48,416 bases of DNA from a virus, in the IMG/VR virus record IMGVR_UViG_3300045988_069092; one strand, given 5' to 3'. The translations under genes and the position numbers were made by a program. Of this stretch, positions 2,260-48,416 are shown piece by piece; positions within the stretch are counted from its first letter, which is position 1, and every line of letters begins with the position of its first letter. The notes beneath the pieces were generated by a model that had not been told where the DNA came from, searched no databases, and worked only from the letters and a program-made list of their open reading frames with translations.

Positions 2260-2276
2260 AGATACCTCCGTAAAGA

Positions 2277-2325
2277 AAAATGGCGCATGACTGTTTGAGC
2301 TTTTCGCTCTCGCAATCATGCGCCA
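2277..2325 (-). promoter_or_regulatory. 49-nt structured leader/terminator-like hairpin, copy 1, upstream of terL
   Basis: The minus strand reads TGGCGCATGA-TTGCGA-GAGC-GAAAA-GCTC-AAACAG-TCATGCGCCA-TTTT. It has a 10-bp outer stem, an inner 4-bp stem, and a trailing T-run. It is 100% identical to 48295-48343. Confidence 0.7.
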
Positions 2326-2339
2326 TTCAATAATCTCGA

Positions 2340-2915
2340 TTATACCTTCCCGTCAATGATGGATTGGAGCTTTGTCCCAAGCTCAAGCCACTTTGGATGA
2401 ACCTTGTTCCCGATGAACCCGCTGTTCTCGATGTGACAGCTATACCGCTCACCGTTCTTCGTGAAGATTTGCATGAAAAACCCTTCGCCCTCGTTGTAGT
2501 AGGTGGTCTGAGATTTCGACCCCGCCGAAGCCGCTCCAACGACAGCCCCAACGCCACCTGCAATAGCCCCGCCGATGATAGCCCGTGTGATAACACCCTT
2601 GCTCGTGGTCTGCGTCTGAGCTTTCTGCACCACATTCTCCACGATGGAGTACGAGCTGATTTCATCGTAGGGGATAAGGTATTTGACGAACCATATCACT
2701 CGGTTATCGTCACTGAACATGATGTTCTCGTTCGGTGCATACCCGCTGAAACTCTTGAAAATCTGACAGCTCTCAAACAACTTCGCTTGGGAGAGAGCTT
2801 CTTTCGCCAAATCAATCTGATACTGGTCTGGCTTCCGCTTTTTCAGGAGCTTGTCGAGCTTCCTCTGCGCCTTTTCGATGTTCTTGGTGTTGTGAAAATT
2901 ATCGTATTGCCCCAT
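2340..2915 (-). CDS. Hypothetical protein with a glycine-zipper hydrophobic segment
   Basis: ATG (MGQYDNF) preceded by GGAGGGTAAGACC. Contains IIGGAIAGGVGAVVGAASAG. No family recognised. Confidence 0.6.
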   Translation of the reverse strand: MGQYDNFHNTKNIEKAQRKLDKLLKKRKPDQYQIDLAKEALSQAKLFESCQIFKSFSGYAPNENIMFSDDNRVIWFVKYLIPYDEISSYSIVENVVQKAQTQTTSKGVITRAIIGGAIAGGVGAVVGAASAGSKSQTTYYNEGEGFFMQIFTKNGERYSCHIENSGFIGNKVHPKWLELGTKLQSIIDGKV

Positions 2916-2932: not shown

Positions 2933-3041
2933 AAGTAGTCAAAGTAGTTGATTTTCGATTTTTCCGTAAACTTTCGCCTAATGTGCGCATACTAAGAGGA
3001 AGTTACACGCAAAACCTGATTTTCCGCTACTTTAACTACTT
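2933..3041. repeat. Nested palindromic element, copy A (109 bp)
   Basis: Outer arms AAGTAGTCAAAGTAGTTG and CGCTACTTTAACTACTT. Inner arms TTTTTCCGTAAAC and GTTACACGCAAAAC. The centre contains TGCGCA. The right arm contains the stop codon of the serine recombinase gene. Confidence 0.85.
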
Positions 3042-3604
3042 CTTCTGCTGATTTCGTACTGCTTGCACTTGCGGAAGAAGGTGGAGCGGGACATCCCCGA
3101 CTCCTTGATTGCGTCCTTGAGCGGGATTTTGCCAGCCGCCCACGCATTTGCCACGGTGAAGAACCGCTCATTGGCTGGAATCGGCTTGCGCCCCTTGTAC
3201 TTTCCTTCGGACTTCGCAATTTCAATCCCTTCACGCTGTCTCTCCAAAATGCTTTCCCGCTCGAACTCGGCGAGAGCCGCAAACACGGTCAGCACGAACT
3301 TCCCTTGCGGGGTGCTGGTGTCAAACTTCTCCTTCTCGGAGACAAGGTTCACACCACGCTCGGTCAGCGTTGCGACCGTGGCAAGAAGGTCTCGTGTGCT
3401 TCTGGATAGGCGAGAGAACGACTCCACATACAGGGTGTCACCATCACGCAGGAACGAGAGCATTTCGTTGAACAGCGGCCTGTCGGTGTTCTTACCACTG
3501 CGCTTCTCGTGGTAGACCTTCTCCACACCAAGGGACTTCATGAGTTCCATCTGTCTCGCCGGGTTTTGTTCTGCGGTGCTTACTCGTACATAACCGACCC
3601 TCAT
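3032..3604 (-). CDS. Small serine recombinase (resolvase/invertase family) with C-terminal HTH
   Basis: N-terminal MRVGYVRVSTAEQ catalytic-serine motif. Also SRLSRS, FAALAEFERE, and a C-terminal HTH (SRSTFFRKCKQY). Confidence 0.9.
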   Translation of the reverse strand: MRVGYVRVSTAEQNPARQMELMKSLGVEKVYHEKRSGKNTDRPLFNEMLSFLRDGDTLYVESFSRLSRSTRDLLATVATLTERGVNLVSEKEKFDTSTPQGKFVLTVFAALAEFERESILERQREGIEIAKSEGKYKGRKPIPANERFFTVANAWAAGKIPLKDAIKESGMSRSTFFRKCKQYEISRRSS

Positions 3605-3617
3605 GTACTCACCTCCG

Positions 3618-3830
3618 TTATTCCTCCCGCTTCACATAGGTAAGCTCGATGTCGTAGCCAAGAGCTTCCATGATTTCTACGAAGGTCTTATTCACCAGAC
3701 CGTCTTTCTTCTTGATAATGCGGTTGACATACTGGCCTGTCGTGCCAATCTTCTCCGCAAGGTTGAGCTGGCTCATGTGAGATTCAAGGCACTTGACCTT
3801 CACATCGAGTTCAATGTTGTTGCGTACCAT
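3618..3830 (-). CDS. XRE-family HTH transcriptional regulator (70 aa)
   Basis: HTH segment MSQLNLAEKIGTTGQYVNRIIKKK. GGAGG lies 7 nt upstream of the ATG. Confidence 0.8.
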   Translation of the reverse strand: MVRNNIELDVKVKCLESHMSQLNLAEKIGTTGQYVNRIIKKKDGLVNKTFVEIMEALGYDIELTYVKREE

Positions 3831-3858: not shown

Positions 3859-3899
3859 AGTATAGCATTTGAAAAGGTTGTTGTCAACACGGAAAAGAT
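3859..3899 (-). promoter_or_regulatory. Sigma-A-type promoter of the XRE gene, plus a 14-mer operator
   Basis: Minus strand reads TTGACA (3882-3887), a 17-nt spacer, then TATACT (3859-3864). The 14-mer AACACGGAAAAGAT (3886-3899) overlaps the -35 and recurs twice at 12696-12753. Confidence 0.7.
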
Positions 3900-6654: not shown

Positions 6655-6746
6655 ATAGTCGGAAAAGGGGCGGTCATAGTCGCAAAGTGTTTGCTATCTC
6701 ATAGTCGATAGTCGCTTGAGAGTTGATAGTCGATAGTCGTTAGTCG
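6655..6746. repeat. Array of seven same-orientation ATAGTCG (one TTAGTCG) iterons at the 3' end of terS
   Basis: Copies at 6655, 6676, 6701, 6708, 6726, 6733 and 6740. Further copies lie at 6812 (inside terS) and 7317 (overlapping the terS start codon). Confidence 0.8.
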
Positions 6747-7318
6747 TTGTCCGAATCAGAGTCGGAGTTGTTAGAGTCGATAAGATAACGCTCTCTGATA
6801 GAGTCAGGGTCATAGTCGTTGTCCTTGTTGCTGTCGGGGAGTACGGGAGTCACATCCACCTTCTTGACATCCTGATAGCCATAGTTGTTGACTCCGAGGA
6901 ACACACCCGCCATGGGGTTGATTTTGCCGTTGAGCATGTAGTCCTCCCACAGACATTCCAAAAGTTGGTACGCTTTTTTTACCAAGTCCGTAACGCCTTG
7001 CGGCAACGAGGACAGCCCACCCATGGCTCCACTGCCTTGTGTGTTACCTGTCTTGATTTCCCACAGTCTTCTCCTGTCAATCCCCAACGCCATAGCCATA
7101 CCAGACACGGAGGGCTTCATATCGCTATCCACCATGAGGTTGAAATACTCATTGAGCCTGTTCTGTACCGCAACCTCATCATGCAAATCAATCTTGGGCA
7201 TGTTCATGAAGTGCAGGTTCATGCTGGTGTACTTGGCATTATCCCCAGCGTCAAGTGTGAGGGAGCTGGTACTCGTAGGCAATCCAATGCCCTTCGGGTT
7301 GTTTCTCTTTGTTGCCAT
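6740..7318 (-). CDS. terS: Terminase small subunit (putative)
   Basis: HTH-like segment SVSGMAMALGIDRRRLWEI. Also the GVFLGVNNYGYQD motif typical of small terminases, and an acidic SDSDSDND tail. GAGGAGG lies upstream. Confidence 0.65.
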   Translation of the reverse strand: MATKRNNPKGIGLPTSTSSLTLDAGDNAKYTSMNLHFMNMPKIDLHDEVAVQNRLNEYFNLMVDSDMKPSVSGMAMALGIDRRRLWEIKTGNTQGSGAMGGLSSLPQGVTDLVKKAYQLLECLWEDYMLNGKINPMAGVFLGVNNYGYQDVKKVDVTPVLPDSNKDNDYDPDSIRERYLIDSNNSDSDSDND

Positions 7319-7386: not shown

Positions 7387-7494
7387 AAGTAGTTAAAGTA
7401 GTTGAAAATCAGTTTTTGCGTAAACTTTCGCTATATAGACCCCCTTATAGGAGACTTTTACGCAAAATCAAGATTTGAACTACTTTTACTACTT
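7387..7494. repeat. Nested palindromic element, copy B (108 bp)
   Basis: Outer arms AAGTAGTTAAAGTAGTTG and GAACTACTTTTACTACTT. Inner arms TTTTTGCGTAAAC and TTTTACGCAAAAT. The centre differs from copies A and C. Confidence 0.85.
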
Positions 7495-7568
7495 CTCCTA
7501 TAACTTTGCGAAAAGACAAGTAGTAGTCCTACAAAGATTATTTCGCAAATGTCATTTTTGATGATTTT

Positions 7569-7727: not shown

Positions 7728-8921
7728 TCACTCGCTTGCCTTGTAGTTGTACAGAGGTTTAATGACCATGAGAATGTCCACCGTCTCGGCGATATTCGCC
7801 ACGATTTCTGCCATGGGCTTGTAGACCATCGGGCTTTCATCAATCGTGGACTGACTGACCGAGGTGGTGAAGATACCCTTCATGGAGTCCTCAAAGTCGG
7901 CGAGACTCACCAGCTCCTTCGCCTTGCTACGGCTCATGATACGACCTGCGCCGTGCGGGGCAGAGCAGTTCCAATCCGGGTTGCCTTTACCTTTGCCGAT
8001 AATACAGCCGTCTCGCATGTTGATGGGAATGAGCAGGAGTTCACCGGCCTTGGCAGAGATAGCTCCCTTGCGAACCATGTTCGTCTCCAAGTCGATGTAG
8101 TTGTGAATGGTCTCGAAACCACCCCAAGGGTTCCAGCCCATCACATCGAGAATGGTCTCGGCAATAGCGAAGCGGTTGAGGACGGCGTACCGCTGGCAGA
8201 TTCTCATGTCGTGTAGATAGTCTTCACGAGTCTTGCCGGTGAGGTAGCACAGCTCCTTCGGAATACCGAGAGGGTTCGGGCTGAACTTGCGGTGAAGCTC
8301 CTTGATAGCTTTCTCGATTTCCTTCTTTCGTCCCTGCGCCGTGTACTCGGCAATCAACTGCTCCTGCCGCTTGTACAGCAGGTCTTTGCCCGACATGGTC
8401 TCCACGGCGAGAGCCTGATAGTACTCTGCCACCTGCTTGCCGAGGTTGCGGCTTCCCGTGTGGATAATGAGGAACTTGTTGCCGTACTCGTCCATGTCGA
8501 TTTCGATGAAGTGATTGCCGCCGCCAAGAGTGCCAATGCTTCTCTTAATGCGGTCGATGTCTTTCAGGTGACGGTAGCACCGAAGCTCGTCCAGCATATC
8601 GAAACGAACATACTCGCTCTTGCGCACCTCTCTGCCAGAGGGGATGTGCTCACGAATGGCAGAGTCAAGGGCGGTGAAGTCGATGTCGATTTGTCCGAGT
8701 TCCACGGTGCGCATACCGCACCCGATGTCTACACCCACGATGTTCGGAATCACCTTGTCACCCAAGTCGGCGGTGAAGCCGATTACACACCCGGCTCCTG
8801 CGTGGACATCGGGCATGATACGAACCTTGCAGTCAGCGAAGACGGGTTGCTTCACGAGGGTGTAAATCTGGTTCAGGGCTTCGGGTTCGATATTGTCAGT
8901 GAAGATTTTAAGGTCACTCAT
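7728..8921 (-). CDS. rtcB: RtcB-family RNA 3'-phosphate ligase
   Basis: Motifs MPDVHAGAGC, GGGNHFIEI, HTGSRNLG and APHGAGR. Start refined to MSDLKIF, with GAGGTGG upstream. Confidence 0.9.
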   Translation of the reverse strand: MSDLKIFTDNIEPEALNQIYTLVKQPVFADCKVRIMPDVHAGAGCVIGFTADLGDKVIPNIVGVDIGCGMRTVELGQIDIDFTALDSAIREHIPSGREVRKSEYVRFDMLDELRCYRHLKDIDRIKRSIGTLGGGNHFIEIDMDEYGNKFLIIHTGSRNLGKQVAEYYQALAVETMSGKDLLYKRQEQLIAEYTAQGRKKEIEKAIKELHRKFSPNPLGIPKELCYLTGKTREDYLHDMRICQRYAVLNRFAIAETILDVMGWNPWGGFETIHNYIDLETNMVRKGAISAKAGELLLIPINMRDGCIIGKGKGNPDWNCSAPHGAGRIMSRSKAKELVSLADFEDSMKGIFTTSVSQSTIDESPMVYKPMAEIVANIAETVDILMVIKPLYNYKASE

Positions 8922-8925
8922 TTTG

Positions 8926-9294
8926 TTACACCACCTCATGCAAAATCTGTTCCAGTCGCTCGGCGCACTTCACGATGAAATCATCGTCCTGCGAGAAAAG
9001 TTTGCCGTCCCTCTGCAATCTTTCGAGAGCCATGAGAGAGGAGCTGATTTTCTCTGCGCACTTGGCAACATGGGTTCTATGGTTCGTCTCTGCCGTGATG
9101 GGGTAAAAGACGGCGTTCCTGCCAAGCTCTGCCCCGTTGGTCATGACGAACTTGGTACGAGCTGGGGTGATACGCTCGATAGTCAGGGGGATAGTCTTCG
9201 GGTAGCGGAAGAACCCCCACCCGATTTGAGTTTTCATTCTGACTCCCACGACATCACCCGGCTTCAAGGTGCTTTTGTCGATTACATCATACAT
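8926..9294 (-). CDS. Hypothetical protein
   Basis: Start refined to MYDVIDK, preceded by GAGGAGGAAAGCGAAA. Confidence 0.55.
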   Translation of the reverse strand: MYDVIDKSTLKPGDVVGVRMKTQIGWGFFRYPKTIPLTIERITPARTKFVMTNGAELGRNAVFYPITAETNHRTHVAKCAEKISSSLMALERLQRDGKLFSQDDDFIVKCAERLEQILHEVV

Positions 9295-12166: not shown

Positions 12167-12637
12167 TTATTTATTCATTACTCGCTCCAAGAGCTGTTCG
12201 TACAGATTCTTGTACAGGTCTCTCTCGATTTCCTCCCGGCACTGGATGTCAGCTTTCGGGTCGGGAGTGTTCGCCGCCTGTTGCGGAGCTTCCTCCATGC
12301 TGGCAGAACGGATACCGAGCGAATACAGCAGAGCGGAGTCAATCTGCTTCATTTCCTCATCCGTGCAGGAACGGACGAAGCCGTCAAGCCGTTCTTTCGA
12401 GACCGTCTGGATGTTCTCGCACAGGGCGGTCGAAGGAACTTTGCACTGAACCGGCACATGCGTGGGCATGGGCTTCTTCTCCTGAGAGGTCAGGAACACA
12501 ACCTCCACATTGGGAGAGTACCTGTTGGCGAGGTCGTTGGAAACGATAACGCCGGGTCTATGACCACCCTGCTCGGAGCCAGAGACGGGAGAGTGAGCAA
12601 TGAAGAAGATGTCCCCCCGGTAAAAGTCTTGAGTCAT
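12167..12637 (-). CDS. MazF/PemK-family endoribonuclease toxin with a C-terminal extension of about 45 aa
   Basis: Motifs RGDIFF, GSEQGGHRPGVIVSND, VVFLTS and PTHVPV. Start refined to MTQDF, preceded by AAGGAGG. Confidence 0.85.
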   Translation of the reverse strand: MTQDFYRGDIFFIAHSPVSGSEQGGHRPGVIVSNDLANRYSPNVEVVFLTSQEKKPMPTHVPVQCKVPSTALCENIQTVSKERLDGFVRSCTDEEMKQIDSALLYSLGIRSASMEEAPQQAANTPDPKADIQCREEIERDLYKNLYEQLLERVMNK

Positions 12638-12690
12638 GATGTAATCCTCCTTAATCTGAATGAGATAATTTATTGCCTTGTTGTGATTAG

Positions 12691-12753
12691 ATAATAACAC
12701 GGAAAAGATTATTTGTCAACCCTCTCGGAAATATTTTTTATCTTTTCCGTGTT
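12691..12753 (-). promoter_or_regulatory. Sigma-A-type promoter of the mazF-like/thyX unit, bracketed by an inverted pair of the 14-mer operator
   Basis: Minus strand reads TTGACA (12714-12719), a 17-nt spacer, then TATTAT (12691-12696). AACACGGAAAAGAT lies at 12696-12709, and its exact reverse complement lies at 12740-12753. Confidence 0.7.
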
Positions 12754-15474: not shown

Positions 15475-16020
15475 TTACAGACCGCCGAGCAGAGCGTCAA
15501 GGTCAAGCCCTTTTGCCGCAGGAGCGGGAGCGGCGGGGGGGGGGGGGGGGGCGGCGGGAGCCGGGGCGGTAGCAGGTTTCGCAGTGGCGGGAGCGGCTTC
15601 GTTCATGCCGAGCGTCAGCGCACGGGCAACCGGCTCAGTGTCGAAGTACTCTGCCGGGGACTTCTCGCCGAGGTTGGCGAAAGTGACCATCTTGTTCGGG
15701 TCTTTGTTGGAAGGGAGCTTGGTGTGTACCACCTCAGCACAGATGAAGTGGTCGATAAGCTCTGCCGGGTCGATGTCCTCCAAGGTGTAGTCACCCATCA
15801 CGGTCTTGGCGAAGTAGGAAAAGGCGTTCAGAGCCTTTTCGTTCAGCTCGTCATTGTTGTCCTTGATGGAGAATCGCTCGATGTGGGTCATGCCAGCGGC
15901 GTTCACCAGCTTGACCTCAATCTTGCCAAACTCCTCGTCATAGGTAGCGGCATACACACGGAACACATAGGTTCCTTCGGGAATGAGAGTGAAACCACTC
16001 GTCATAGGGATTCGTGCCAT
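15475..16020 (-). CDS. DUF669-like protein, candidate ssDNA-binding protein, with an Ala/Pro-rich linker and a DLDALLGGL tail
   Basis: N-terminal FTLIPEGTYVF pattern. Position is inside the recombination/replication module. AAGGAGG lies upstream. Confidence 0.5.
   Translation of the reverse strand: MARIPMTSGFTLIPEGTYVFRVYAATYDEEFGKIEVKLVNAAGMTHIERFSIKDNNDELNEKALNAFSYFAKTVMGDYTLEDIDPAELIDHFICAEVVHTKLPSNKDPNKMVTFANLGEKSPAEYFDTEPVARALTLGMNEAAPATAKPATAPAPAAPPPPPAAPAPAAKGLDLDALLGGL
15535..15551. repeat. Homopolymer of about 17 G (C17 on the coding strand) inside the SSB-like gene
   Basis: Counted directly from the sequence. It encodes the PPPPP stretch. Confidence 0.85.
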
Positions 16021-22906: not shown

Positions 22907-22935
22907 TTGACAGTAAGCCGAATTGATGTTATTAT
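22907..22935 (+). promoter_or_regulatory. Rightward sigma-A-type promoter (towards the CI-like gene)
   Basis: TTGACA (22907-22912), a 17-nt spacer, then TATTAT (22930-22935). Confidence 0.6.
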
Positions 22936-23523: not shown

Positions 23524-25098
23524 ACGAAAGCGGTAATCTATGCCAGATATTCGAGCCATAGCCAAAGGGAAGAATCCATAGAGGGACAGCTTCGGGAGTG
23601 TCACGACTTTGCGCTGAAAAACGGAATGACCATCATCGGTGAGTACTGCGATAAGGCAATCTCAGGAAAGACCGACAATCGACCGAGCTTCCAACGGCTC
23701 ATAAAGGACAGCGAGAAGGGGCAGTTTGAAGCGGTGATAATGTATACCCTTGACCGTTTCGCTCGAAATAGGTACGACTCTGCCATCTACAAAGCAAAAC
23801 TGAAAAAGAACGGTGTGCGGGTCTACTATGCCAAACAGCCAATGCCCGACACGCCAGAGGGCATTATCCTTGAGTCCGTGTTGGAGGGGTATGCCGAGTA
23901 CTACTCGGAGAACCTGTCACGCAACATCAAACGGGGCATGAAGGAAAACGCATTGCAGTGCATTGCCAACGGTGGAGCCGGTATGCCCTTGGGGTACACG
24001 GTAGGCGAAGACAGAAGGTACAAGATAGACCCCGTTGGAGCAAGAATCGTTCAAGAGATTTTCCAGATGTACGCTGACGGTATGTCGGCTACGCAAATCA
24101 TCAACGAGTGCAACAAGCGTGGCTATAAGACCGCACGAGGAAATGCGTTCAACAAAAATAGCCTACGCACCATGTTGAAGAACGACAGGTACATAGGCGT
24201 ATATCGGTTTGCGGATGTCGTGGTGGAGGGTGGTGTCCCGCCCATCATAAGCCGGGAGCTGTTTGACAAGGTTCAAGCTACCCTCAAGCACAACTATTCA
24301 GCCCGTGCAAGGAACAAGGCCAAGGACGATTACCTTCTCACCGCCAAGCTGTTTTGCGGTCACTGCGGCTCCTCCATGGTGGGAGAGAGCGGCACTTCAA
24401 AGTCTGGAAAGCTCCATCACTACTACAAGTGCATAGAGCGCAAGCGCAAGCACAAGTGTAATAAGGCCGTGGAGAAGAAAGACTGGATGGAGGAGTTGGT
24501 GGTTCGCTTCACTGTCCAAAAAGTGCTGACCGATGAAAACATAGAGCGCATTGCGGTCAAGGCCATGGAGATTATCGAGAAGGAGTCTGCTGACACCACC
24601 TACATTGATGGTCTACGAAACGAGCTGAAAGAGGTTAAGAAGAAAATCAAGAACCTCATGACTGCCATCGAGCAGGGCATTATCACCCCGTCCACCAAGG
24701 AGAGGATGGACGAGCTGGAACTTGAGAAGAACGAGATAGAGGGAAGAATCGCCAGCGAGGAAATGAAAAAGCCACTCCTGACGAAAGAGCGCATAATGTA
24801 CTGGCTCTACTCGTTCAAGAGTGGCAATATAGATGATGTCGAGTACAAGCGTAGGGTGATAGACACGCTGGTGAACTCGGTGTATGTCTATGATGAAGGG
24901 GACAAAGGGAGAAGAATTGTCTTCACCTTCAACATATCAGGGCAAAACACCGCTACGCTCTCGTGTTCGGATATAGCGTGTTTCGCTCCACCAAAAATAA
25001 ACCACCCGCAAGGGTGGATTTATTTTTGCCGTGGGCCTGCGGGAGTCGAAGTTTATCCCCCCTTGCGGGGGAAATCCCTTCAGGTCCACCAAAAATAA
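23524..25098 (+). CDS. Large serine recombinase (integrase)
   Basis: KAVIYARYSSHSQREESIEGQ catalytic region lies upstream of the first ATG of the ORF track. It also has a recombinase domain and a zinc ribbon (CGHCGSSM...YYKC). No ATG/GTG/TTG occurs at the expected start; an ACG sits 7 nt after GGAGG. Confidence 0.85.
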   Translation, partial: TKAVIYARYSSHSQREESIEGQLRECHDFALKNGMTIIGEYCDKAISGKTDNRPSFQRLIKDSEKGQFEAVIMYTLDRFARNRYDSAIYKAKLKKNGVRVYYAKQPMPDTPEGIILESVLEGYAEYYSENLSRNIKRGMKENALQCIANGGAGMPLGYTVGEDRRYKIDPVGARIVQEIFQMYADGMSATQIINECNKRGYKTARGNAFNKNSLRTMLKNDRYIGVYRFADVVVEGGVPPIISRELFDKVQATLKHNYSARARNKAKDDYLLTAKLFCGHCGSSMVGESGTSKSGKLHHYYKCIERKRKHKCNKAVEKKDWMEELVVRFTVQKVLTDENIERIAVKAMEIIEKESADTTYIDGLRNELKEVKKKIKNLMTAIEQGIITPSTKERMDELELEKNEIEGRIASEEMKKPLLTKERIMYWLYSFKSGNIDDVEYKRRVIDTLVNSVYVYDEGDKGRRIVFTFNISGQNTATLSCSDIACFAPPKINHPQGWIYFCRGPAGVEVYPPLRGKSLQVHQK

Positions 25099-25188
25099 GC
25101 CCCCCGCAGAGGTGGCTTTATTTTTGTCGTGGGCCTAGGGATTCGAGGTTTATGCCCTGAAAGGGTAAATCCCTTCAGACCTACCAGG
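24986..25188 (+). repeat. Tandem modules of about 95-98 bp. Each has a tRNA-like ...CCACCA end, an intrinsic terminator, and then a tRNA-Ala-like acceptor minihelix.
   Basis: CTCCACCA at 24986, GTCCACCA at 25084 and ACCTACCA at 25179. Homologous AAAATAA-hairpin-TTTATTTTTG terminators follow. GGGCCTG (25034-25040) pairs with CAGGTCC (25081-25087), giving G3:U70, A73 and CCA. Confidence 0.7.
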
Positions 25189-25261
25189 CATTCAGAACCA
25201 TCTGGAAATTGGATTATTCTGAATTTTCCTTTCGGTTGAAGAAAACAGCTACTCTCGTTTA

Positions 25262-25311
25262 TGCAAAATCAGAAGCACTCGACTACTACATAAGTCAAGT
25301 GCATCTGATTT
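25262..25311 (-). terminator. Probable terminator of the MTase-nuclease gene
   Basis: A stem of about 13 bp (AAATCAGAAGCACT / AGTGCATCTGATTT, one mismatch), followed by TTTTG on the minus strand. Confidence 0.5.
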
Positions 25312-25320
25312 ATTTAAATA

Positions 25321-27345
25321 CTATTCAGTAGTCTTTCCATAAGGACCTATGAATCTGAATCCGTTTCTATGAATCATGTGGTCTGGATTAGTGACAATCC
25401 AAACCTCAGTCTCCCATGCAAGATCTTCCTTGCAGCTGCGAAATGCGTCGTTGCTCTCAAACGCAGTAATGTAAATGCATTTATCTGCACATTCTCCCAT
25501 CATCTGTTCAAGTTCATATTTTCGCTCTGCCGTAATTGGATTTGAAGTATGATAGGCTTCAATCAAGTAAATCCAATCTTTTTCCGCTGAATACGCAACA
25601 ATGTCAGGAAGCTTGCCTTGTGACAAATCTTTGATTCCAAGCTCTGCAAGCTTTTCTTTTTCATTTATGACACCATATTTGTTGTCTGAGTCTCCACAAT
25701 AAAGCAACGTCGCTCCATAACCGAAACGGGGCAGGAACTCAGTAATAACTTGTTGCTGTATCAAGTTATGTTCCCCATCTTTTAATTGGAACTCTTTTCC
25801 ATCCGGCATTTTTACATTAATCATAGGGATATTTCTTGTCTGTGCCAGCCTTTCCCGATATATTTTGTGGGTCTTGTTAAAAATTTCAACCTGTTTCTCC
25901 CAATCTTTCTGCCCGAATTTGCTGATAATCCGAGCGTACTCTGTGCTAATTCTGTACCCACGAGTTGCATCGCTTAGATTAGACTCTGGCTTTGACCGTT
26001 CTACGATTCCACCAATCAACAACTTACTAAAACCATCTCGGAGAACATAGTCATAGGAACCCTTGCTCATATTTTCCTCAAGATATGTATTGTAAAACTC
26101 TACGCATTGCTTTGTAGTAATACTATAACCAGAGTTTGTCGATTTGACTTTTCTCCACTCTTTTGAGGTCTTAACATCGCCTGCGGCTAGCAATGCCATG
26201 GCTAACTTCTCTTTATCTCGCCCAGTTAAGCCTTCCAAAGGAATCCCAAGCTGATCAATAATAAAAAGTGCCTCTCTTATCAAAGTCTGGACAGCAAGAT
26301 CTTTTTCTTGAAAAGATTTTTTTCCTTTTTGCTTTCTTGTTATAAGCTCGGGCAAATTATATCGGTCCATCCCTTTTTGGTGTCTCCCTTCTAAATAATC
26401 AACGACTGCCAGCGCCATTTTATATGCAAATATAGGAGGAACAGCATTTCCGATTTGTGTGTATTGACTTTCTTCAGAACCACAAAATTCAAACCAATCC
26501 GGAAATCCTTGTAGCCGTGCAGCTTCTCGCACTGTAATCCTTCGACGCCGCCCGTCCGACAACTTGATCCTGTGCATATCGCTAGTTGCGCCAGCAAGAT
26601 TACGACAAGTCAAAGTGCGCGCAGGGCGATCCATGTGCAAATCTCTTGGAGTCCTACATTTGGATGCTGCCTCATATTTTGCGATATACTCGTCCATCGC
26701 AGGAGTCAAAAAAATAGCATTATCAGGTATATCTGTAGCTAATGCGCCCAATGCTTCTCCAGCGCTTATAACATAGTCATTCGGCTTCGGAAACTTAAAC
26801 CCGCCGTGATGCCCGACAATAACCATTCTTTCTCTACTTTGAGGAACATCGAATTTTACAAGTTGAAAAGTTCTATGTTCGACTATGTACCCCAATTTCT
26901 TGCATTGGTCAATTATCGACTGAAAATACGAAGTACTTTGTTCAGGTAGCCCCTTAACATTTTCACACATCCATAAATCGGGTTGAACTTTTTTTACCGC
27001 TTCGATAAAAGCCGGAAAGCCATTTCTATCATCAATTTGTCCTTTCCGCTTCCCTCGCCTGCTAAAGGGTTGACAGGGAGGCCCCCCTATAAGAACACTC
27101 GCTCTAGGAAATTCAGTATCTTTTGTAATTATCTCTTGATGACACTCAGAACGAAGATTCTTTCTGTAGGTGTCACAACAATCTTCAACCATTTCATATC
27201 CTACGGTTTTTATCCCCGCAGCTTCAAATCCTAAAGACAGTCCGCCACAGCCTGCAAACAAATCTATGGCGCAATATTTGGAAGTTGGGGGGATTTTTAT
27301 GGTATTATTTAAATACTCAATAAAATTATCATATCTCTTGGGCAT
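25321..27345 (-). CDS. Fusion protein: C5 cytosine DNA methyltransferase (N-terminal) plus a BsuBI/PstI-like restriction endonuclease domain (C-terminal)
   Basis: MTase motifs DLFAGCGG, GGPPCQPFS, ENV and QIGNAVPP. The C-terminal LPDIVAYSAEKDWIYLIEA...AWETEVWIV..PDHMIHRNGFRFIGPY matches my recollection of the BsuBI_PstI REase family. Start refined to MPKRYDN after GGGGAGGG. Confidence 0.8.
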   Translation of the reverse strand: MPKRYDNFIEYLNNTIKIPPTSKYCAIDLFAGCGGLSLGFEAAGIKTVGYEMVEDCCDTYRKNLRSECHQEIITKDTEFPRASVLIGGPPCQPFSRRGKRKGQIDDRNGFPAFIEAVKKVQPDLWMCENVKGLPEQSTSYFQSIIDQCKKLGYIVEHRTFQLVKFDVPQSRERMVIVGHHGGFKFPKPNDYVISAGEALGALATDIPDNAIFLTPAMDEYIAKYEAASKCRTPRDLHMDRPARTLTCRNLAGATSDMHRIKLSDGRRRRITVREAARLQGFPDWFEFCGSEESQYTQIGNAVPPIFAYKMALAVVDYLEGRHQKGMDRYNLPELITRKQKGKKSFQEKDLAVQTLIREALFIIDQLGIPLEGLTGRDKEKLAMALLAAGDVKTSKEWRKVKSTNSGYSITTKQCVEFYNTYLEENMSKGSYDYVLRDGFSKLLIGGIVERSKPESNLSDATRGYRISTEYARIISKFGQKDWEKQVEIFNKTHKIYRERLAQTRNIPMINVKMPDGKEFQLKDGEHNLIQQQVITEFLPRFGYGATLLYCGDSDNKYGVINEKEKLAELGIKDLSQGKLPDIVAYSAEKDWIYLIEAYHTSNPITAERKYELEQMMGECADKCIYITAFESNDAFRSCKEDLAWETEVWIVTNPDHMIHRNGFRFIGPYGKTTE

Positions 27346-27438
27346 ATGTCCCTCCCCTTTCTCTTTTATAAAAATAGCCAACAATAGAAATTTACTCTTT
27401 TTGCATTATGCATACGATTAACTAATCGACTATTTTTA

Positions 27439-27467
27439 ATTATACTTCATTCTTTTTTAAATTGCAA
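27439..27467 (-). promoter_or_regulatory. Candidate promoter of the MTase-nuclease gene
   Basis: Minus strand reads TTGCAA (27462-27467), a 17-nt spacer, then TATAAT (27439-27444). Confidence 0.5.
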
Positions 27468-27713
27468 ATAGAAGCTTATTTATAAGCCGTGGGCTCTCAT
27501 ACAGGAAAAGCTGGTCTTGTCACGTATCTCACGCGGTATGCGCCCGTGCTACGCCACATGATTTTTATATCGTCGCATGAAGAAAGCACTTCCGCCCTGC
27601 GCTTGCAGGAGGGAAGTGCTTTCTCGGCCCAAGAATACACACCATTTTTCGCGGTGGTCATATTTTTATATGCTTTTTTCGATTTTGTTCTGCTATAATT
27701 TCGGCGGCTAAAA

Positions 27714-27783
27714 GTGCGCCATGCGGCAGAGCGTTCGGTTCGCATCCGAGAGGTCGAGGGTTCGAATCCCTTCAGGTCCACCA
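27714..27783 (+). tRNA. 5'-truncated tRNA-Ala(CGC)-like segment (D-arm to CCA). The 5' acceptor strand is missing.
   Basis: Anticodon arm TTCGG-TTCGCAT-CCGAG (anticodon CGC). Variable loop AGGTC. T-arm GAGGG-TTCGAAT-CCCTT. Acceptor 3' strand CAGGTCC, then A and CCA. No complementary GG(A/G)CCTG occurs upstream. An extended -10 (TGCTATAAT, 27691-27699) lies just upstream. Confidence 0.55.
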
Positions 27784-27845
27784 AACAGTGCAAATCCGAA
27801 CACCTTGTTTTTCGTCAAACATTGCTTCGGATTTGTTATGAACAT

Positions 27846-27878
27846 AGAGGAGGTAGGCTGATTATGCCTACCTCCTCT
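27846..27878 (+). terminator. Strong hairpin (13-bp perfect stem), terminator-like
   Basis: AGAGGAGGTAGGC-TGATTAT-GCCTACCTCCTCT, followed by TGTTGTGTG. The T-run is weak. Confidence 0.5.
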
Positions 27879-27911: not shown

Positions 27912-28020
27912 AAGTAGTTAAAGTAGTTGTTCTTGGGTTTTTGCGTGTAACTTTTGCTTAGTATGCGCATATATAGAGAAAGTTTACGCAAAAACCGATT
28001 TTGAACTACTTTTACTACTT
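27912..28020. repeat. Nested palindromic element, copy C (109 bp), inverted relative to copy A
   Basis: Outer arms AAGTAGTTAAAGTAGTTG and GAACTACTTTTACTACTT. Inner arms TTTTTGCGTGTAAC and GTTTACGCAAAAA. The centre is TATGCGCATA. The right arm contains the holin stop codon. Confidence 0.85.
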
Positions 28021-28317
28021 CTGCTCGGCCTGTTTCAGCTCCAAGACAGCGGACTCAATGAGGTTGTCAATCTCCTCGGTGTTCAGGGTGAAGCCCTTGC
28101 TGTTGAGGAAATCCAGCACATATTTCTTCTTTTCCTCACCTCTGCCACTGCCCACATAGAGCATTTCTGCCGCTTGCACGGCAACCTGCACCCACAGCTT
28201 GATGGTCTTGAACTGCTCGTCCGTGGTTTTCGCCTTGATATAGGGAATCAAGAAAGCGGAAATCAGGGAGATAATCAGGGTCAGAACTGCGGTGATGATG
28301 GGAGTAAGGTCAATCAT
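28015..28317 (-). CDS. Holin (LL-H-like)
   Basis: N-terminal TM helix, followed by an amphipathic region. Its position is next to the endolysin. Confidence 0.6.
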   Translation of the reverse strand: MIDLTPIITAVLTLIISLISAFLIPYIKAKTTDEQFKTIKLWVQVAVQAAEMLYVGSGRGEEKKKYVLDFLNSKGFTLNTEEIDNLIESAVLELKQAEQK

Positions 28318-30588: not shown

Positions 30589-30902
30589 ACGCTCACCCCC
30601 ACAATTTCCAGAGCTTCCTTCATGTCCTGCACAATGCTTGCACCCTCGTTGATTTCAAGCGTCCTGCCGGTGATAAGCCAGTTGCTCATGTTTCCTTCGA
30701 TTTCCTCTCGCAGACCTTCTTTGCCAGCCAGATGGAAAGTGTACTCGTCATACTCGAACATGGTGACTTCACGCTCGGTCATTTCATCGACCATGGTGAT
30801 GTCCTTGATGTTCTCCCTCAGACGCACTTCCACATACCCCGGCATGGGTGCGAACGGCTCAATGGTGAGCGAGTTGGGAGAGACATTTCCTCTTACTCTC
30901 AT
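30585..30902 (-). CDS. Hypothetical acidic protein overlapping the RT 3' end by 44 nt
   Basis: GGAGG lies 9 nt upstream of the ATG. It is not Avd-like: it is acidic and shows no obvious four-helix-bundle pattern. Confidence 0.55.
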   Translation of the reverse strand: MRVRGNVSPNSLTIEPFAPMPGYVEVRLRENIKDITMVDEMTEREVTMFEYDEYTFHLAGKEGLREEIEGNMSNWLITGRTLEINEGASIVQDMKEALEIVGVSV

Positions 30903-31962
30903 TGCTGATAACCTCCTTCAACTTCTTGATGTTGACTGTCTCGCAGTACTTCTTCCTCATTGCGTAGGAATTGGTATGCTTGAAACAGGCGCACCGGGAG
31001 ATAAACCCGGAAGCGATTCTGTATGCGATAGGTCGGTTTTCTCTCTGTAGTTTCTGGATAAACCTGCTTTGCCGCATGAGAGCCAATGCTCTCCGCTTGC
31101 GAATGGTGGTGAAGCCCACGCCAAAACATCGTCCCACGAAGTCTATCTTTCGCCCTCTGCGGCCTGACCTATCTTTGCAGTACTGCTGAATACGAAAGAG
31201 CTGATAGTCATGCTTGATGGACAGGCCAAGCTCACCCACGAACTCGAAGATGTCATGGAGAGCTTTTCTCAGCTTTCGTTTATTGCTGTCAATCAGTACC
31301 AAATCGTCAGCATATCGGACATAGTGTCGGATTCTGTGCTTCTGCTTGATAAGATTGTCCAGCGGTTGCAGGTACAGCTCTGCCAGCCAAGGCGAGGTGT
31401 AGTTTCCGATGGGAAGCCCTTGTTCGTGGGAGTCAATCACCTTGAAGATGATTTGCAGGAACTTTTCGTCTTTGATTTTCTCCCGCAGACGGGCTTTCAG
31501 TTTGCCGTGAGGAATGGACGGGTAGAACTTGCTTATGTCCATCTTCACGCAGTACTTGGCGTGTTTTCTGTCCCTGACAGTAGCCCTCTCCACACCCTTG
31601 GAAGCATGGTCGATACCACGCTTCGGGATGTTGGCACAGCTCCAATGATAGGAAGACCGTTCAATGATAGGCTTGAGGACTTGCATAATGGCGTGGTGTG
31701 CGCATTGGTCAGGGTAGAACGCCGGGATTTGTAGTTCTCGTTCTTTTCCAGACAGACCGTCCTTGATGAAACGAGTCTTGTATGGCGAGAGAAAGTCCAT
31801 GCGACTCAAGCGTTCGGACAGGTCTTTTGCGTAGTCCTCCAAGTTGTCGCAGACATCTTTCACCATCTTCCGCTTCCTCTTGTTCTGAGAAGCGTTAAGG
31901 ATAGCCAGCCGACAGTTATCGACCGACACCACCTTTTCATAGAGAAAGCCAAACCTTTTCAT
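30859..31962 (-). CDS. DGR-type reverse transcriptase
   Basis: RT motifs including YVRYADDLVL (YxDD) and LPIGNYTSPWLAELYL, which is the DGR-type IGxxxS(Q) region. The gene lies directly downstream of the TR. Confidence 0.9.
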   Translation of the reverse strand: MKRFGFLYEKVVSVDNCRLAILNASQNKRKRKMVKDVCDNLEDYAKDLSERLSRMDFLSPYKTRFIKDGLSGKERELQIPAFYPDQCAHHAIMQVLKPIIERSSYHWSCANIPKRGIDHASKGVERATVRDRKHAKYCVKMDISKFYPSIPHGKLKARLREKIKDEKFLQIIFKVIDSHEQGLPIGNYTSPWLAELYLQPLDNLIKQKHRIRHYVRYADDLVLIDSNKRKLRKALHDIFEFVGELGLSIKHDYQLFRIQQYCKDRSGRRGRKIDFVGRCFGVGFTTIRKRRALALMRQSRFIQKLQRENRPIAYRIASGFISRCACFKHTNSYAMRKKYCETVNIKKLKEVISNESKRKCLSQLAHH

Positions 31963-32077
31963 GTGCTTTTGTTTCTTATAGGGCTTTCGAGAGTGAACCT
32001 ACTAACCCTATCCCTCCAAACTATTTTTTACCAATGGGTACGGCGAGACAGTATTTTGATGGATAGACCGTTTAACA

Positions 32078-32197
32078 AAAGTAGGCGAGAGCCAATGTTC
32101 GTGTTGGAATTGGACGAAGTGTTGTTCAAATTAGCCGTAAACAGACCGCAAATCGAGCCATTATTCCAATTGCCGCCGTGTTGGAACACTCGCTATT
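32078..32197 (-). repeat. DGR template repeat (TR)
   Basis: 120-bp colinear match to 32294-32413. The only differences are at TR adenines on the minus strand. Confidence 0.9.
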
Positions 32198-32251
32198 ACT
32201 GTTCGCCTTAGTGTGTTGCTGTAGCGTTACATAGGCGTTTTCACCTGCTTA

Positions 32252-32274
32252 TGTGGGGGAGGGAATCCCCCACA
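32252..32274 (-). promoter_or_regulatory. GC-rich hairpin just downstream of the VR and stop codon (candidate DGR target-recognition hairpin)
   Basis: TGTGGGGGA / TCCCCCACA form a 9-bp stem with a 5-nt loop. On the minus strand it begins 6 nt after the stop codon. Confidence 0.6.
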
Positions 32275-32279
32275 CCCCC

Positions 32280-34217
32280 TCAGGAGGGAATATAAAGCAG
32301 GCGAGAGCCAATGCTCGAGTGGGAATAGGACGAAGTGCCGTCCAAATAAGCCGTAAACAGACCGCAAACCGAGCCAAAAGACCAAACGCCGCCGTGCTGG
32401 AACACCCGCCAACCAGTGCTACTCCAACAGCCGTCACACATATAGGTGGACTCACTGCCGCTACCAGCCGCCGCAGGAAGCATGACATGAGGGTTGTTGC
32501 CAGAGTCAAGACCTTCCTCGGTGATGTAAGAACTGCTCCAATTCGTAGCACCCGTGTAGGAGAGTTTGGCGTAATTGCTTGCGGTATCGTCTGCATACTT
32601 GGACGGGTCGTTGCAGACATAGTAAGAGCCGTTGTTCCAGTTCACACCGTCAACCCATTCCCACACATTGCCCCACAGACCCTCGATACCTCTCCACACG
32701 ACATCGACCTTGCCGTCCGTGCCAGAAGGTCTGCCAGTGAGATTCGGAATACTGTTGCAGGAGCCGGTTTTCAGAGAACCGCTGTTGCCGTCACAGTAAC
32801 CTCTACCGATTTTGCTCTGCACATTGTTGTCGGCGAACTCAACCAGCATGAGCATTTGCACAGCGGAGAGTGCCGCAATGTCAATCAGGCTCCAACCTGC
32901 GCCCTTGCTCTTGGCATTGGAGCGGAACTGCGCTCTCGTCTGAGACACCTGAGGGCTTGCGCCGCTGACGGACTTGTTGTTGGAGGAGGTCTTGTATGCG
33001 CCGATGTAGGCGTGGTCACACTCCTTGCCAGCATGATTGAACAGCGGGTGAACGGAGAAACCAGCAGTGGGCTTGTCGGCGATTTTGATATACTCCACAT
33101 TCCCGGAGCGGTAACGGCGATACCAGAACTTGGGGATTTTCACCATCACATCACCCGTGGAGAGGGTTTCACGCACAATGCCCTTCCAAGGCATGGCATT
33201 GTCGAAATCGCTATGACCTGCGCTTGCACCCACGGAAGCAGTGGCAGTCATGCCGACAGCGTTGTCGGTTCTCGCCCAAGCGGGGGACGAAGTACTCTTG
33301 TCTCTGCTGATACCGTAGATTTTCACGAAGGACAGCTCCACTTCCTCACTCTGCCCGTCAGAGGTGATTACGACCTGCTCAGAAGCGGTCTCGCTTCCGC
33401 TCACTGCTTTCACCGTCCAAGTGCCGACCTCGTGGACTTGGAACTGATAAGTACCCGTGCTGGTCGTGGCAGTGTAGACCGTTTCGTTCAGGGAGCAGGT
33501 CAGCGTTGCGCCAGCGGGATAGGTGACATCAATGGTGGCGGTGAAATAGTAGTAGGTGGCTTCGTAGTTCGATACCGCACCTGCCACAGACACTTTGGAA
33601 GTAGTGTTATCAGGCTTGGAGTACCCGTCAGCCGCCCCGTACTCGATGTGATAGGTGTGACCGATAGCGACCGTGAAGGAAGTGGTCTTCTGCGTCTTGG
33701 TGAGGGTGGCAGTTTTGGTATACTGCCCGTCCGTCTCGTCCACGCAGGTGATGGTGACGCTGGTAAATGCGCTATCATCGTCAATCTCGATGGTGACATT
33801 CGCCGTCTCGCCATCGGCGGGGGGAGCCGCAGAAGCCCGGTTGCTCTCATTGGTGGAGAGATTGAACACGCCCTGCGTGGAGTACGGGAAAGCGGCGAAG
33901 TAGTAGGTCTTGCCCTCGGTCAGACCGTCCACCACATACTCCTCGGTGGCGTACTCACCAAGCTCCTTGTTGTCGATAACCAGCGTACCCTCGCTGGTGT
34001 TCGTGGGGTACTGCTCCTCGCTCATGCGAATCATTACGCCGCCAACGGAGCAGAGCAGGTTTCCTGCGCTGTCATAGCTGTCGGCGGGTTCCAGAAATCT
34101 CAGTCCGATACTGTTTTTGGATTTTGCGAAAGCGGTGAACTCTCGCATGTTGTTGGGGGCTTGCCCAACTTTCTGCAAAATCTGGTCTACAGTCCATTTT
34201 GCTTCTGCCCAACTCAT
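32280..34217 (-). CDS. Tail fibre / receptor-binding protein with a C-terminal C-type-lectin/FGE-like DGR variable domain
   Basis: GLWGNVWEWVDG motif upstream of the VR. Position is in the distal tail module. Confidence 0.85.
   Translation of the reverse strand: MSWAEAKWTVDQILQKVGQAPNNMREFTAFAKSKNSIGLRFLEPADSYDSAGNLLCSVGGVMIRMSEEQYPTNTSEGTLVIDNKELGEYATEEYVVDGLTEGKTYYFAAFPYSTQGVFNLSTNESNRASAAPPADGETANVTIEIDDDSAFTSVTITCVDETDGQYTKTATLTKTQKTTSFTVAIGHTYHIEYGAADGYSKPDNTTSKVSVAGAVSNYEATYYYFTATIDVTYPAGATLTCSLNETVYTATTSTGTYQFQVHEVGTWTVKAVSGSETASEQVVITSDGQSEEVELSFVKIYGISRDKSTSSPAWARTDNAVGMTATASVGASAGHSDFDNAMPWKGIVRETLSTGDVMVKIPKFWYRRYRSGNVEYIKIADKPTAGFSVHPLFNHAGKECDHAYIGAYKTSSNNKSVSGASPQVSQTRAQFRSNAKSKGAGWSLIDIAALSAVQMLMLVEFADNNVQSKIGRGYCDGNSGSLKTGSCNSIPNLTGRPSGTDGKVDVVWRGIEGLWGNVWEWVDGVNWNNGSYYVCNDPSKYADDTASNYAKLSYTGATNWSSSYITEEGLDSGNNPHVMLPAAAGSGSESTYMCDGCWSSTGWRVFQHGGVWSFGSVCGLFTAYLDGTSSYSHSSIGSRLLYIPS
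32294..32413 (-). repeat. DGR variable repeat (VR), the last 40 codons or so of the fibre gene
   Basis: See the TR entry. It encodes ...GWRVFQHGGVWSFGSVCGLFTAYLDGTSSYSHSSIGSRLL. Confidence 0.9.
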
Positions 34218-48267: not shown

Positions 48268-48294
48268 GACTGTCCCTCCTCTCCTCAGAAATTG

Positions 48295-48343
48295 AAAATG
48301 GCGCATGACTGTTTGAGCTTTTCGCTCTCGCAATCATGCGCCA
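48295..48343 (-). promoter_or_regulatory. 49-nt structured leader/terminator-like hairpin, copy 2, upstream of portal
   Basis: Identical to 2277-2325. It lies about 20-65 nt downstream of the predicted transcription start of the promoter at 48370-48398. Confidence 0.7.
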
Positions 48344-48369
48344 CATCTATGCCATAATTATTCGTGTAT

Positions 48370-48398
48370 ATTATAGCATTTCGGTTCGTAAAAGTCAA
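48370..48398 (-). promoter_or_regulatory. Near-consensus sigma-A-type promoter of the structural operon. It spans the circularisation junction and is also present at 9-37.
   Basis: Minus strand reads TTGACT (48393-48398), a 17-nt spacer, then TATAAT (48370-48375). Confidence 0.7.
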
Positions 48399-48416
48399 GT
48401 TCTAATTCTTGTTTTA

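Follow-up and report, generated by a model that had tools for sequence, protein, structure and literature searches.

What is the function of a 108-109 bp quasi-palindrome that is found three times at cistron junctions of a viral genome whose genes lie nearly all on the minus strand? The genome (IMG/VR record IMGVR_UViG_3300045988_069092; hereafter the window, meaning the whole 48,416-nt stretch that was analysed) is a circular contig of ~48.36 kb, bases 1-55 being identical to 48362-48416, and the copies of the element are designated A, B, and C (Table 1). An original prediction, made from the letters alone, proposed that they are res-type sites of the 190-aa small serine recombinase encoded next to copy A. 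That proposal is not supported, because the same element occurs with another recombinase or with none nearby. The copies belong to a large family of DNA elements, not described before, that sit at fixed gene junctions in prophages of gut Clostridia. Our tentative reading, held with somewhat less than even confidence, is that they would act as DNA-level, multi-subsite protein-binding elements that punctuate transcription at cistron junctions.

Architecture of the three copies

The three copies were confirmed at the positions and with the arms first described for them, and they follow a common plan: each end has two AAGTAGT heptamers, inner boxes of the TTTTGCGTAAAC type come next, and the TATA-rich core is GC-rich in its centre. 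The four heptamers of each copy are arranged as 2 + 2, inverted, ~92 bp apart; every arm consists of two heptamers with 9-bp spacing, which bears out the period-9 duplication reported for the outer arm. The inner boxes are TTTTTGCGT(GT)AAAC and its complement. With up to two mismatches allowed, the outer-arm motif AAGTAGTNAAAGTAGT has six matches in the window, all of them at the six arms, against 0.08 expected from shuffles, and the heptamer itself occurs 19 times against 3.6 expected, with 11 occurrences inside the copies and one at 24 nt from copy B (7518-7524). The GC content of the copies is 31-37%, compared with ~52% for the genome.

The copies had been described as two direct repeats (A and B) and one inverted repeat (C), an assignment that is not robust: copies A and C are identical at 88 of 111 positions in direct and 87 of 110 in inverted alignment, and copies A and B at 82 of 112 and 85 of 112, respectively, such that relative orientation judged from identity is ambiguous. 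Family-wide, the polarity of the spacers places A and C in the same orientation relative to transcription and B in the opposite one. The inner core of A is flipped relative to that of C, which explains why the reverse complement of A had been found to align with C. The spacers themselves, formerly taken to be non-conserved, are partly conserved, with the family consensus AAAATCRG.

An element family at three syntenic junctions

An exact-pattern scan of IMG/VR returned at least 120 stretches with full elements, and a scan of GTDB contigs, with one genome per species, returned 24, of which ~19 have the inner boxes. The hosts of these ~19 are Roseburia, Faecalibacterium, Dorea, Clostridium, Criibacterium, Erysipelotrichaceae, Oscillospiraceae, and metagenome-assembled genome bins labelled Bacteroidales; the remaining five matches (Bacteroidetes, Nitrospinia) have unrelated interiors. 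All comparative sequences are assemblies, and so give consensus orientation only, and gene calls in the compared loci are heuristic. Among the 132 elements collected (81 unique), lengths are 109 (73 elements), 108 (39), 113 (16), 120 (2), 107 (1), and 112 bp (1). The bona fide elements among the matches listed all belong to one siphophage lineage, whose TerL, portal, primase, and other shared genes are 66-99% identical in nucleotide sequence to those of the window. No similar element was found among INPHARED phages or PLSDB plasmids, and the sole match to the arm sequence in the searchable literature is an unrelated plant paper. The element is an easily searchable marker for this phage lineage and its accessory-gene slots.

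Within the lineage, the elements occupy three syntenic slots, the A-type slot accounting for 56 of those collected, the B-type for 27, and the C-type for 40. The A-type slot lies after the gene for HTH70, a helix-turn-helix (HTH) protein encoded upstream of it in every surveyed A-type locus, with or without a recombinase gene, and before a variable membrane-protein or lipoprotein open reading frame (ORF) and TerL. The B-type slot lies 47-68 nt 5' of a P22-gp3-like terS gene, and the C-type slot is in or after the lysis cassette, in the order holin, element, convergent integrase or endolysin, element, Phage_holin_1 holin. The upstream ORF typically stops within the first arm, which provides stop codons in two frames, and the next start codon lies 12-17, 28-30, or 47-68 nt from the element. 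In the window, stop codons were confirmed inside the right arms of A (recombinase, 3032-3034) and C (holin, 28015-28017); the last codons of the small recombinase (AGT AGT TAA) are supplied by the arm, and the same reading frame runs into the arm in ~28 loci. Between the A-type element with its ribosome-binding site (RBS) and a conserved hairpin before TerL, the slot held in the window by a 191-aa membrane protein gene is filled in relatives by unrelated ORFs; a tblastx grouping of this variable slot was too coarse and was not used.

The conservation of the element is organized in blocks, well above that of the flanking genes and with non-palindromic features included, and in the sense orientation its upstream half is better conserved than its downstream half. 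When elements were picked by their inner boxes alone, the arms read AAGTAGT-NN-AAGTAGT in all 29 unique matches, so the conservation of the arms is no artefact of ascertainment. Two classes of mobile-DNA sequence were considered and rejected. A miniature inverted-repeat transposable element (MITE) would have to be reconciled with the lack of target-site duplications at A, B, and C and with copies confined to three syntenic slots of one lineage. The attP of the large serine integrase is rejected because intact copies lie within integrated prophages, as in a 272-kb contig of Dorea ammoniilytica (L221, L228) and a 569-kb Oscillospiraceae contig (L226); intact elements are also present inside metagenome contigs of 108-172 kb.

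Conserved blocks without a pairing constraint

The two halves of the element are under no visible constraint to pair with one another. Position 8 of the two arms assorts independently (T/A 41, A/T 32, T/T 23, A/A 23), RNAalifold kept only the invariant outer arms, with zero covarying pairs, and complementarity between a left half and a right half is no greater within an element than between elements (p = 0.77-1.0), the spacer and inner box being less complementary between own halves than in chimeras. Native elements also fold less stably than left/right chimeras (-18.0 versus -22.6 kcal/mol; permutation p = 1.0). These four tests, on assortment, covariation, half complementarity, and chimera folding, all speak against a pairing-constrained hairpin. 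Relative to shuffled sequences, copy A folds about as expected (z -1.3 and -2.6), and copies B and C fold far better (z -7 to -8). The earlier preference for protein-bound conserved blocks over a plain RNA hairpin is supported: the arms are invariant, no pairing covariation accompanies them, and the natives fold worse.

An intrinsic terminator was likewise rejected: the inner stem has a T-run on its 5' side and an A-run on its 3' side on both strands, which is not the layout of such a terminator, and a scan found none inside the copies. A promoter scanner found no promoter inside A, B, or C either; promoter and terminator calls throughout are consensus matches only. Rfam has no match at the copies, its sole match in the window being the RT-18 RNA beside the reverse transcriptase of a diversity-generating retroelement, and a tRNA search returned none.

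Independence from recombinase genes

The small recombinase is Gin-like, with the Gin invertase 3uj3 as its closest solved relative (E=4e-31), and the element adjoins the 3' end of 25 of its 26 orthologues at >=76% identity. In about 22 loci, the A-type element is followed after 17-60 nt by the gene for a different recombinase of ~250 aa (Resolvase + PF07508), which has a different DNA-binding domain; the heptamers and boxes of its elements are unchanged. At locus L209, the order is HTH, element, 461-aa membrane protein, and TerL, with no recombinase gene nearby, and at L074 and L239 the small recombinase is present with no adjoining element. In a TerL-anchored sample, a recombinase is accompanied by an A-type element in 23 loci and stands without the element in 24, and 11 loci have neither; the recombinases of the 24 element-less loci are at 31-53% identity, and no comparable palindrome was found next to their genes. 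A recombinase gene upstream of TerL is a lineage trait that is independent of the element, and the adjacency of the two follows from the short interval that they share. The supposed tie between the element and this recombinase family did not emerge from the collection, in which the element is found across non-homologous recombinases or without one nearby. The gene beside A, formerly taken to be the only one of its type, shares the window with a further serine recombinase gene, that of the 490-aa large serine integrase. A sequence is not a res site simply because a recombinase gene adjoins it, a caution that is useful for sequence-only annotation.

The products foreseen for recombination between copies, an inversion of 25 kb (A x C) and an excision of 4.4 kb (A x B), left no trace in the collection: among 129 element junctions, none is an A/C or A/B hybrid. 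These products depend, moreover, on relative orientation, which is not assignable, and this weakens the claim further. Compared with relatives at 90-100% identity, the window has no identity breakpoints at A, B, or C; those that exist lie within TerL and at ~4.7 kb, 5.35 kb, and 6.7 kb. The arms also do not have the gix/hix pattern, as each is a direct repeat, AAGTAGT-NN-AAGTAGT, with positions 8-9 varying freely between the two arms, and not a set of 12-bp inverted half-sites around a 2-bp core. For res subsites, which would be two or three dimer-binding sites made from one 12-bp half-site motif, the comparison was by reading the sequence, in which the arms consist of directly repeated 7-mers spaced at 9 bp, the inner boxes being ~45 bp apart. 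The inner box TTTGCGTAAACT presumably resembles a gix half-site, a likeness that we take as a lead only.

Inversions within single elements were found in situ at the lysis end. In the endolysin/element/holin slot, the whole interior is inverted in two of the 22 loci of one cluster (L192, 379-487; L153, 381-489) relative to 20 orthologous loci with the same flanks, reverse-complement identity reaching up to 1.00 versus 0.36 for direct identity. In the holin/element/integrase slot, the core alone (TTTTGCG...CGCAAAA) is inverted, with the spacers unchanged, in eight of 20 loci (9/21 entries, L371 being counted twice), all of one sub-lineage (L359, L360, L361, L368, L369, L371, L384, and L388). 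No flip was seen in B-type copies, nor in A-type copies across more than 50 assemblies, including 11 metagenome contigs from a flank-anchored search. Polymorphisms in the arms of flipped copies (positions 8, 16) are inconsistent with reciprocal exchange at one fixed point. We read the flips as rare events, probably mediated by the inverted repeats and confined to lysis-slot copies, and as a sign that core orientation may be functionally tolerated, not as a programmed switch.

Related arrays with other heptamers

Arrays of comparable design but different sequence occur in related phages. Locus L324 (3914-4630), which has the same TerL family and HTH70 but no recombinase, carries a 100-nt palindrome 5' of HTH70 composed of GAACAG(A/T) heptamer pairs with a related TAAAAC...TATATA core, and further GAACAGT heptamers lie on both sides, beyond any hairpin. 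At L329 (1786-1950), AAGTGAY pairs with 9-bp spacing, direct and inverted, are found 5' of the terS-like gene. A concerted change of heptamer within a lineage is the behaviour that recognition sites of a diverging DNA-binding protein would be expected to display. A 110-aa HTH gene of L324 is, in addition, surrounded by 15-bp ACTTGACAA repeats in two sets of three.

A proposed protein-bound control site and its rivals

In the reading that we tentatively favour, one lineage of temperate Clostridia siphophages has inherited the element at three fixed cistron junctions, and the heptamers would be bound by a sequence-specific protein that is common to the lineage and is neither the small recombinase nor the XRE or terS-like protein. 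The resulting protein-DNA complex would punctuate transcription of the single, almost unidirectional gene array. Its most likely mode of action would be that of a factor-dependent internal promoter/operator for the next gene (terS-like, membrane 'moron', or holin), with a TATA-rich core that should melt easily; a second possible mode is that of an orientation-independent insulator at the prophage end. Binding sites for a phage regulator were among the alternatives that the original prediction listed, and it is this alternative that we take up, although we infer the protein binding itself, as well as the effect on transcription.

Several features argue for such a site: conserved blocks without a pairing constraint; three syntenic slots even though the flanking genes are only 66-99% identical; an intercistronic geometry in which an ORF stops in the first arm and the next starts at a short, fixed distance; and comparable arrays, built from other heptamers, that related lineages carry in this regulatory region. 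In the window, A and B each precede one gene and then a terminator-like site. Copy A had been placed at a transcription-unit boundary, which is not borne out, as it lies inside a predicted promoter-to-terminator unit comprising a promoter, the HTH70 and recombinase genes, copy A, the 191-aa membrane protein gene, and a hairpin with a U-run (Table 1), after which come an RBS and TerL; in the second predicted unit, B precedes the terS-like gene, which a terminator-like site follows at 6651-6635. The promoter/operator mode is favoured by the better conservation of the upstream half in the sense orientation and by locus L239, in which the slot between the recombinase stop codon and the RBS holds a canonical TTGGAA-17-TATAAT promoter and a different moron in place of the element. 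Lysis-end copies that face a convergent integrase, together with the tolerated core flips, suggest an orientation-independent insulating role at that end.

A number of observations weigh against this reading. No binding protein was identified, and the two candidates that were tried fail to covary with the heptamer: the recognition helix of HTH70 (GTTGQYVNR) is identical in AAGTAGT and GAACAGT phages, and the HTH of the terS-like protein is variable among AAGTAGT phages. A search for sigma-70-type -35/-10 or extended -10 sequences found none at a conserved position in any class or direction, which leaves room only for a non-canonical promoter. In 15 relatives, as in the window, copy C faces the convergent integrase and has no gene to drive. 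Core flips without apparent loss make a strictly directional promoter in the core unlikely, and rigid looping between the arms is hard to reconcile with differences in core length of +4 and +11 nt. Were a protein-bound control site nonetheless to be the answer, it would represent an unrecognised regulatory layer at three fixed junctions of a prophage lineage abundant in the Lachnospiraceae and Oscillospiraceae of the human and animal gut, and would point to a DNA-binding specificity factor yet to be identified.

An RNA-level intercistronic element, a long irregular hairpin that is processed in an RNase III-like manner or that stabilises or uncouples adjacent cistrons, as do REP elements and the RNase III sites of T7, is unlikely. 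Its location always between co-directional cistrons or at 3' ends would suit it, as would the strong folding of B and C, a spacer purine-richness that tracks the sense strand in 46 of 64 A- and C-type copies, and a loop-like tolerance of the core for altered length and sequence; yet no compensatory change was found anywhere, natives fold worse than chimeras, copy A is no better than shuffles on one strand, the B-type polarity is opposite, the extra heptamers of L324 lie outside any hairpin, Rfam has no match, and the flanking T- and A-runs exclude an intrinsic terminator. A cis site for DNA metabolism is rather unlikely, whether as iterons for the phage primase-helicase, with an origin plus auxiliary sites as in P4 ori/crr and SPP1 oriL/oriR, or as sites at which the packaging machinery wraps DNA. 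An AT-rich core between inverted pairs of short repeats is origin-like, the phage encodes a D5/P4-alpha-type primase-helicase, copy B closely follows the replication module and precedes the terS-like gene, and the heptamers are lineage-specific; against these points, one of the three copies lies within the lysis cassette or beyond it, the heptamer and the HTH of the terS-like protein do not vary in step, no signal emerges from cumulative GC skew, several pac or cos sites would fragment the genome, and intact copies in integrated prophages are at odds with attP. We regard as similarly improbable a largely neutral or selfish recombinogenic linker, serving homologous cassette exchange in a PeSL-like manner or descended from a MITE that is now fixed. 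The unrelated ORFs that follow the A-type element, the clustering of accessory genes near the copies (a restriction-modification island, RtcB, and HNH), and the rare flips mediated by inverted repeats would all be accounted for, but not the absence of target-site duplications, the restriction to three syntenic positions without dispersal, the conservation of blocks, non-palindromic features included, far above the flanking genes, or the position of recent mosaic breakpoints away from the elements.

Sites for a small serine recombinase, undergoing res/gix-like exchange between copies or forming a mini-inverton whose ~75-bp interior flips between its own arms, are very unlikely, despite a Gin-like gene fused to the arm of A and to the element in nearly all close orthologues, a second recombinase class whose genes begin a short distance downstream of A-type elements (tnpR is placed similarly downstream of res), and interiors inverted in situ. 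What decides against them is that the element is identical across recombinases with non-homologous DNA-binding domains and is present at L209 with none nearby, that 24 family loci have the recombinase with neither the element nor a comparable palindrome, that inter-copy hybrid junctions are missing, that the recombinase-adjacent A-type copies are unflipped, that the flip junctions are not reciprocal at a fixed point, and that the arms are direct heptamer pairs in place of 12-2-12 dyads. Remoter still is the broader proposition that the elements are substrates of phage serine recombinases, as self-contained mini-invertons or res-like sites whose interior flips would switch the next gene (holin or membrane moron). 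If that were true, they would constitute phase-variable control points in the prophage, and the lysis-slot flips would be snapshots of switching.

Genes and signals in the window

The features beside the three copies are collected in Table 1. A 61-nt repeat, 92% identical between its two occurrences, is present before TerL (2265-2325) and before the portal gene (48283-48343), and consists of an 11-bp-stem hairpin followed by a U-run and an RBS. The ATG listed for TerL (2319) falls inside the hairpin, and the true start is probably the ATG at 2259. A hairpin and U-run before both TerL and portal suggest that the late genes lie behind terminators and need antitermination. The second occurrence of the repeat is preceded by a sigma-70-like promoter at 48398-48370. 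The terS-like gene is ~4.4 kb from TerL (622-2259), with small genes between them, including those for the HTH protein, the recombinase, and the membrane ORF, and a strong terminator-like site is located in this interval at 4442-4422. PADLOC gave no defence-system match for the HTH, recombinase, or membrane genes. Of the ORFs between B and A, eight were searched in Pfam with nothing significant except HTH70 and one weak DUF match, and a PDB sequence search of two (173 aa, 150 aa) was uninformative. Near copy C, the hairpin at the lysis end looks like the terminator of the plus-strand lysogeny unit in relatives.

Table 1. Copies of the element and adjoining genes and predicted signals in the window
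Feature	Coordinates	Strand	Length	Remarks
Copy A	2933-3041		109 bp	A-type slot; outer heptamer pairs 2933-2949 and 3025-3041
Copy A, inner boxes	2959-2971; 3002-3014			TTTTTCCGTAAAC; GTTACACGCAAAA; TATA/GC core in between
Copy B	7387-7494		108 bp	B-type slot; 68 nt 5' of terS-like gene; outer heptamer pairs 7387-7403 and 7478-7494
Copy B, inner boxes	7413-7425; 7456-7467			Core TATATAGACCCCCTTATAGG
Copy C	27912-28020		109 bp	Lysis-end slot; outer heptamer pairs 27912-27928 and 28004-28020
Copy C, inner boxes	27938-27951; 27982-27993			Core TAGTATGCGCATATATAG
Terminator-like hairpin and U-run	2272-2327	-		Between 191-aa gene and probable true TerL start
Glycine-zipper membrane protein	2340-2915	-	191 aa	ATG 17 nt after copy A
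Small serine recombinase, Gin-like	3032-3604	-	190 aa	PF00239 E=4e-42; phrog_125
HTH70, XRE-type HTH protein	3618-3830	-	70 aa	PF01381; phrog_1373
Sigma-70-like promoter	3859-3887	-		TTGACA-17-TATACT, TG-extended; 5' of HTH70 and recombinase; consensus match
terS-like gene, P22 gp3-like	6740-7318	-	192 aa	PF16677 E=2e-6, below curated cut-off; downstream of copy B
Large serine integrase	23626-25098	+	490 aa	
Hairpin, 13-bp stem, with T-tail	27846-27878	+		33 nt from copy C
Holin (Holin_LLH)	28015-28317	-		Stop codon in right arm of copy C

A low-GC (41-42%) island (24996-27776) carries a fused C5-methyltransferase/BsuBI-PstI restriction enzyme gene (25321-27384) and a 98-aa ORF and is bounded by a 21-bp direct repeat, AATCCCTTCAGGTCCACCAAA, at 25073-25093 and 27765-27785. 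The island is missing in L133 and L156, the flanks of which are 99.5-99.8% identical, and in relatives without it the integrase 3' end is ~130 nt from the C-type element. Two further accessory genes look like recent insertions, namely an HNH endonuclease gene (92-628) absent in every relative, with alignments resuming at ~696-698, and RtcB (7728-8939), which is precisely absent in L160. Two facing, near-consensus sigma-70-like promoters, TTGACA-17-TATTAT at 22907-22935 (+) and TTGACA-17-TATAAT at 23063-23035 (-), lie just upstream of the integrase-side genes and form a candidate lysis/lysogeny switch; the AAGTAGT element is absent at this promoter pair. A separate near-consensus promoter (12719-12691) precedes a MazF-like gene (12167-12700). 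The minus-strand ORF 15475-16020 contains a homopolymer of ~17 G on the plus strand (15526-15560) that may be an artefact of assembly or a tract prone to slippage.

The window also encodes a diversity-generating retroelement (30859-34217). Its reverse transcriptase ORF occupies 30859-31962 (-), the RT-18 RNA follows at 31963-32040 (-; 46.6 bits, above the gathering score), and a 116-nt repeat pair (32078-32193 and 32294-32409; 84% identical), likely its template and variable repeats, lies beside or within a 645-aa ORF (32280-34217).

Comparison with known systems

The res sites of Tn3/gamma-delta and Sin and the gix/hix sites resemble the element in their length of ~110 bp, their multi-subsite look, and an adjoining gene of the resolvase/invertase family. 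They differ from it in that the element is not bound to one recombinase family and has yielded no inter-copy recombination products, its arms are direct heptamers rather than 12-bp dyad half-sites, and its element-less relatives keep the recombinase. Repetitive extragenic palindromic (REP) sequences and the bacterial interspersed mosaic elements (BIMEs) are also palindromic units between cistrons, with stop codons and RBSs near. REPs are ~35 bp long, are present in hundreds of chromosomal copies, and are constrained by pairing, whereas pairing in the element is not conserved and a phage carries only one to three copies.

Two phage systems come closer. The PeSL cassettes of T4-type phages combine an early promoter with a stem-loop terminator and are present by the dozen in hyperplastic regions (PMC2839356, PMC4122927). 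Like them, the element is a conserved composite intergenic motif flanking variable accessory ORFs and could offer a homology patch for cassette shuffling; unlike them, it has neither a sigma-70 consensus nor terminator geometry and is held to three fixed slots. In Cluster A mycobacteriophages, the immunity repressor, a phage protein, binds stoperators, each of which is one asymmetric site of 13-14 bp; there are tens of them, they follow the direction of transcription, and the repressor acts there on transcription elongation or initiation (PMC9283540, PMC6550527). The element departs from this arrangement in being a 108-bp composite quasi-palindrome of four heptamers and inner boxes, with one to three copies and none at the immunity region. 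With no known repressor and no host-type promoter or terminator, it lacks the defining features of both stoperators and PeSL cassettes. By analogy, the element would nevertheless work most like dispersed operator-type repeats of phages such as the stoperators, with which it has in common short, conserved, putative recognition sequences that are repeated at intergenic junctions and are specific to a lineage.

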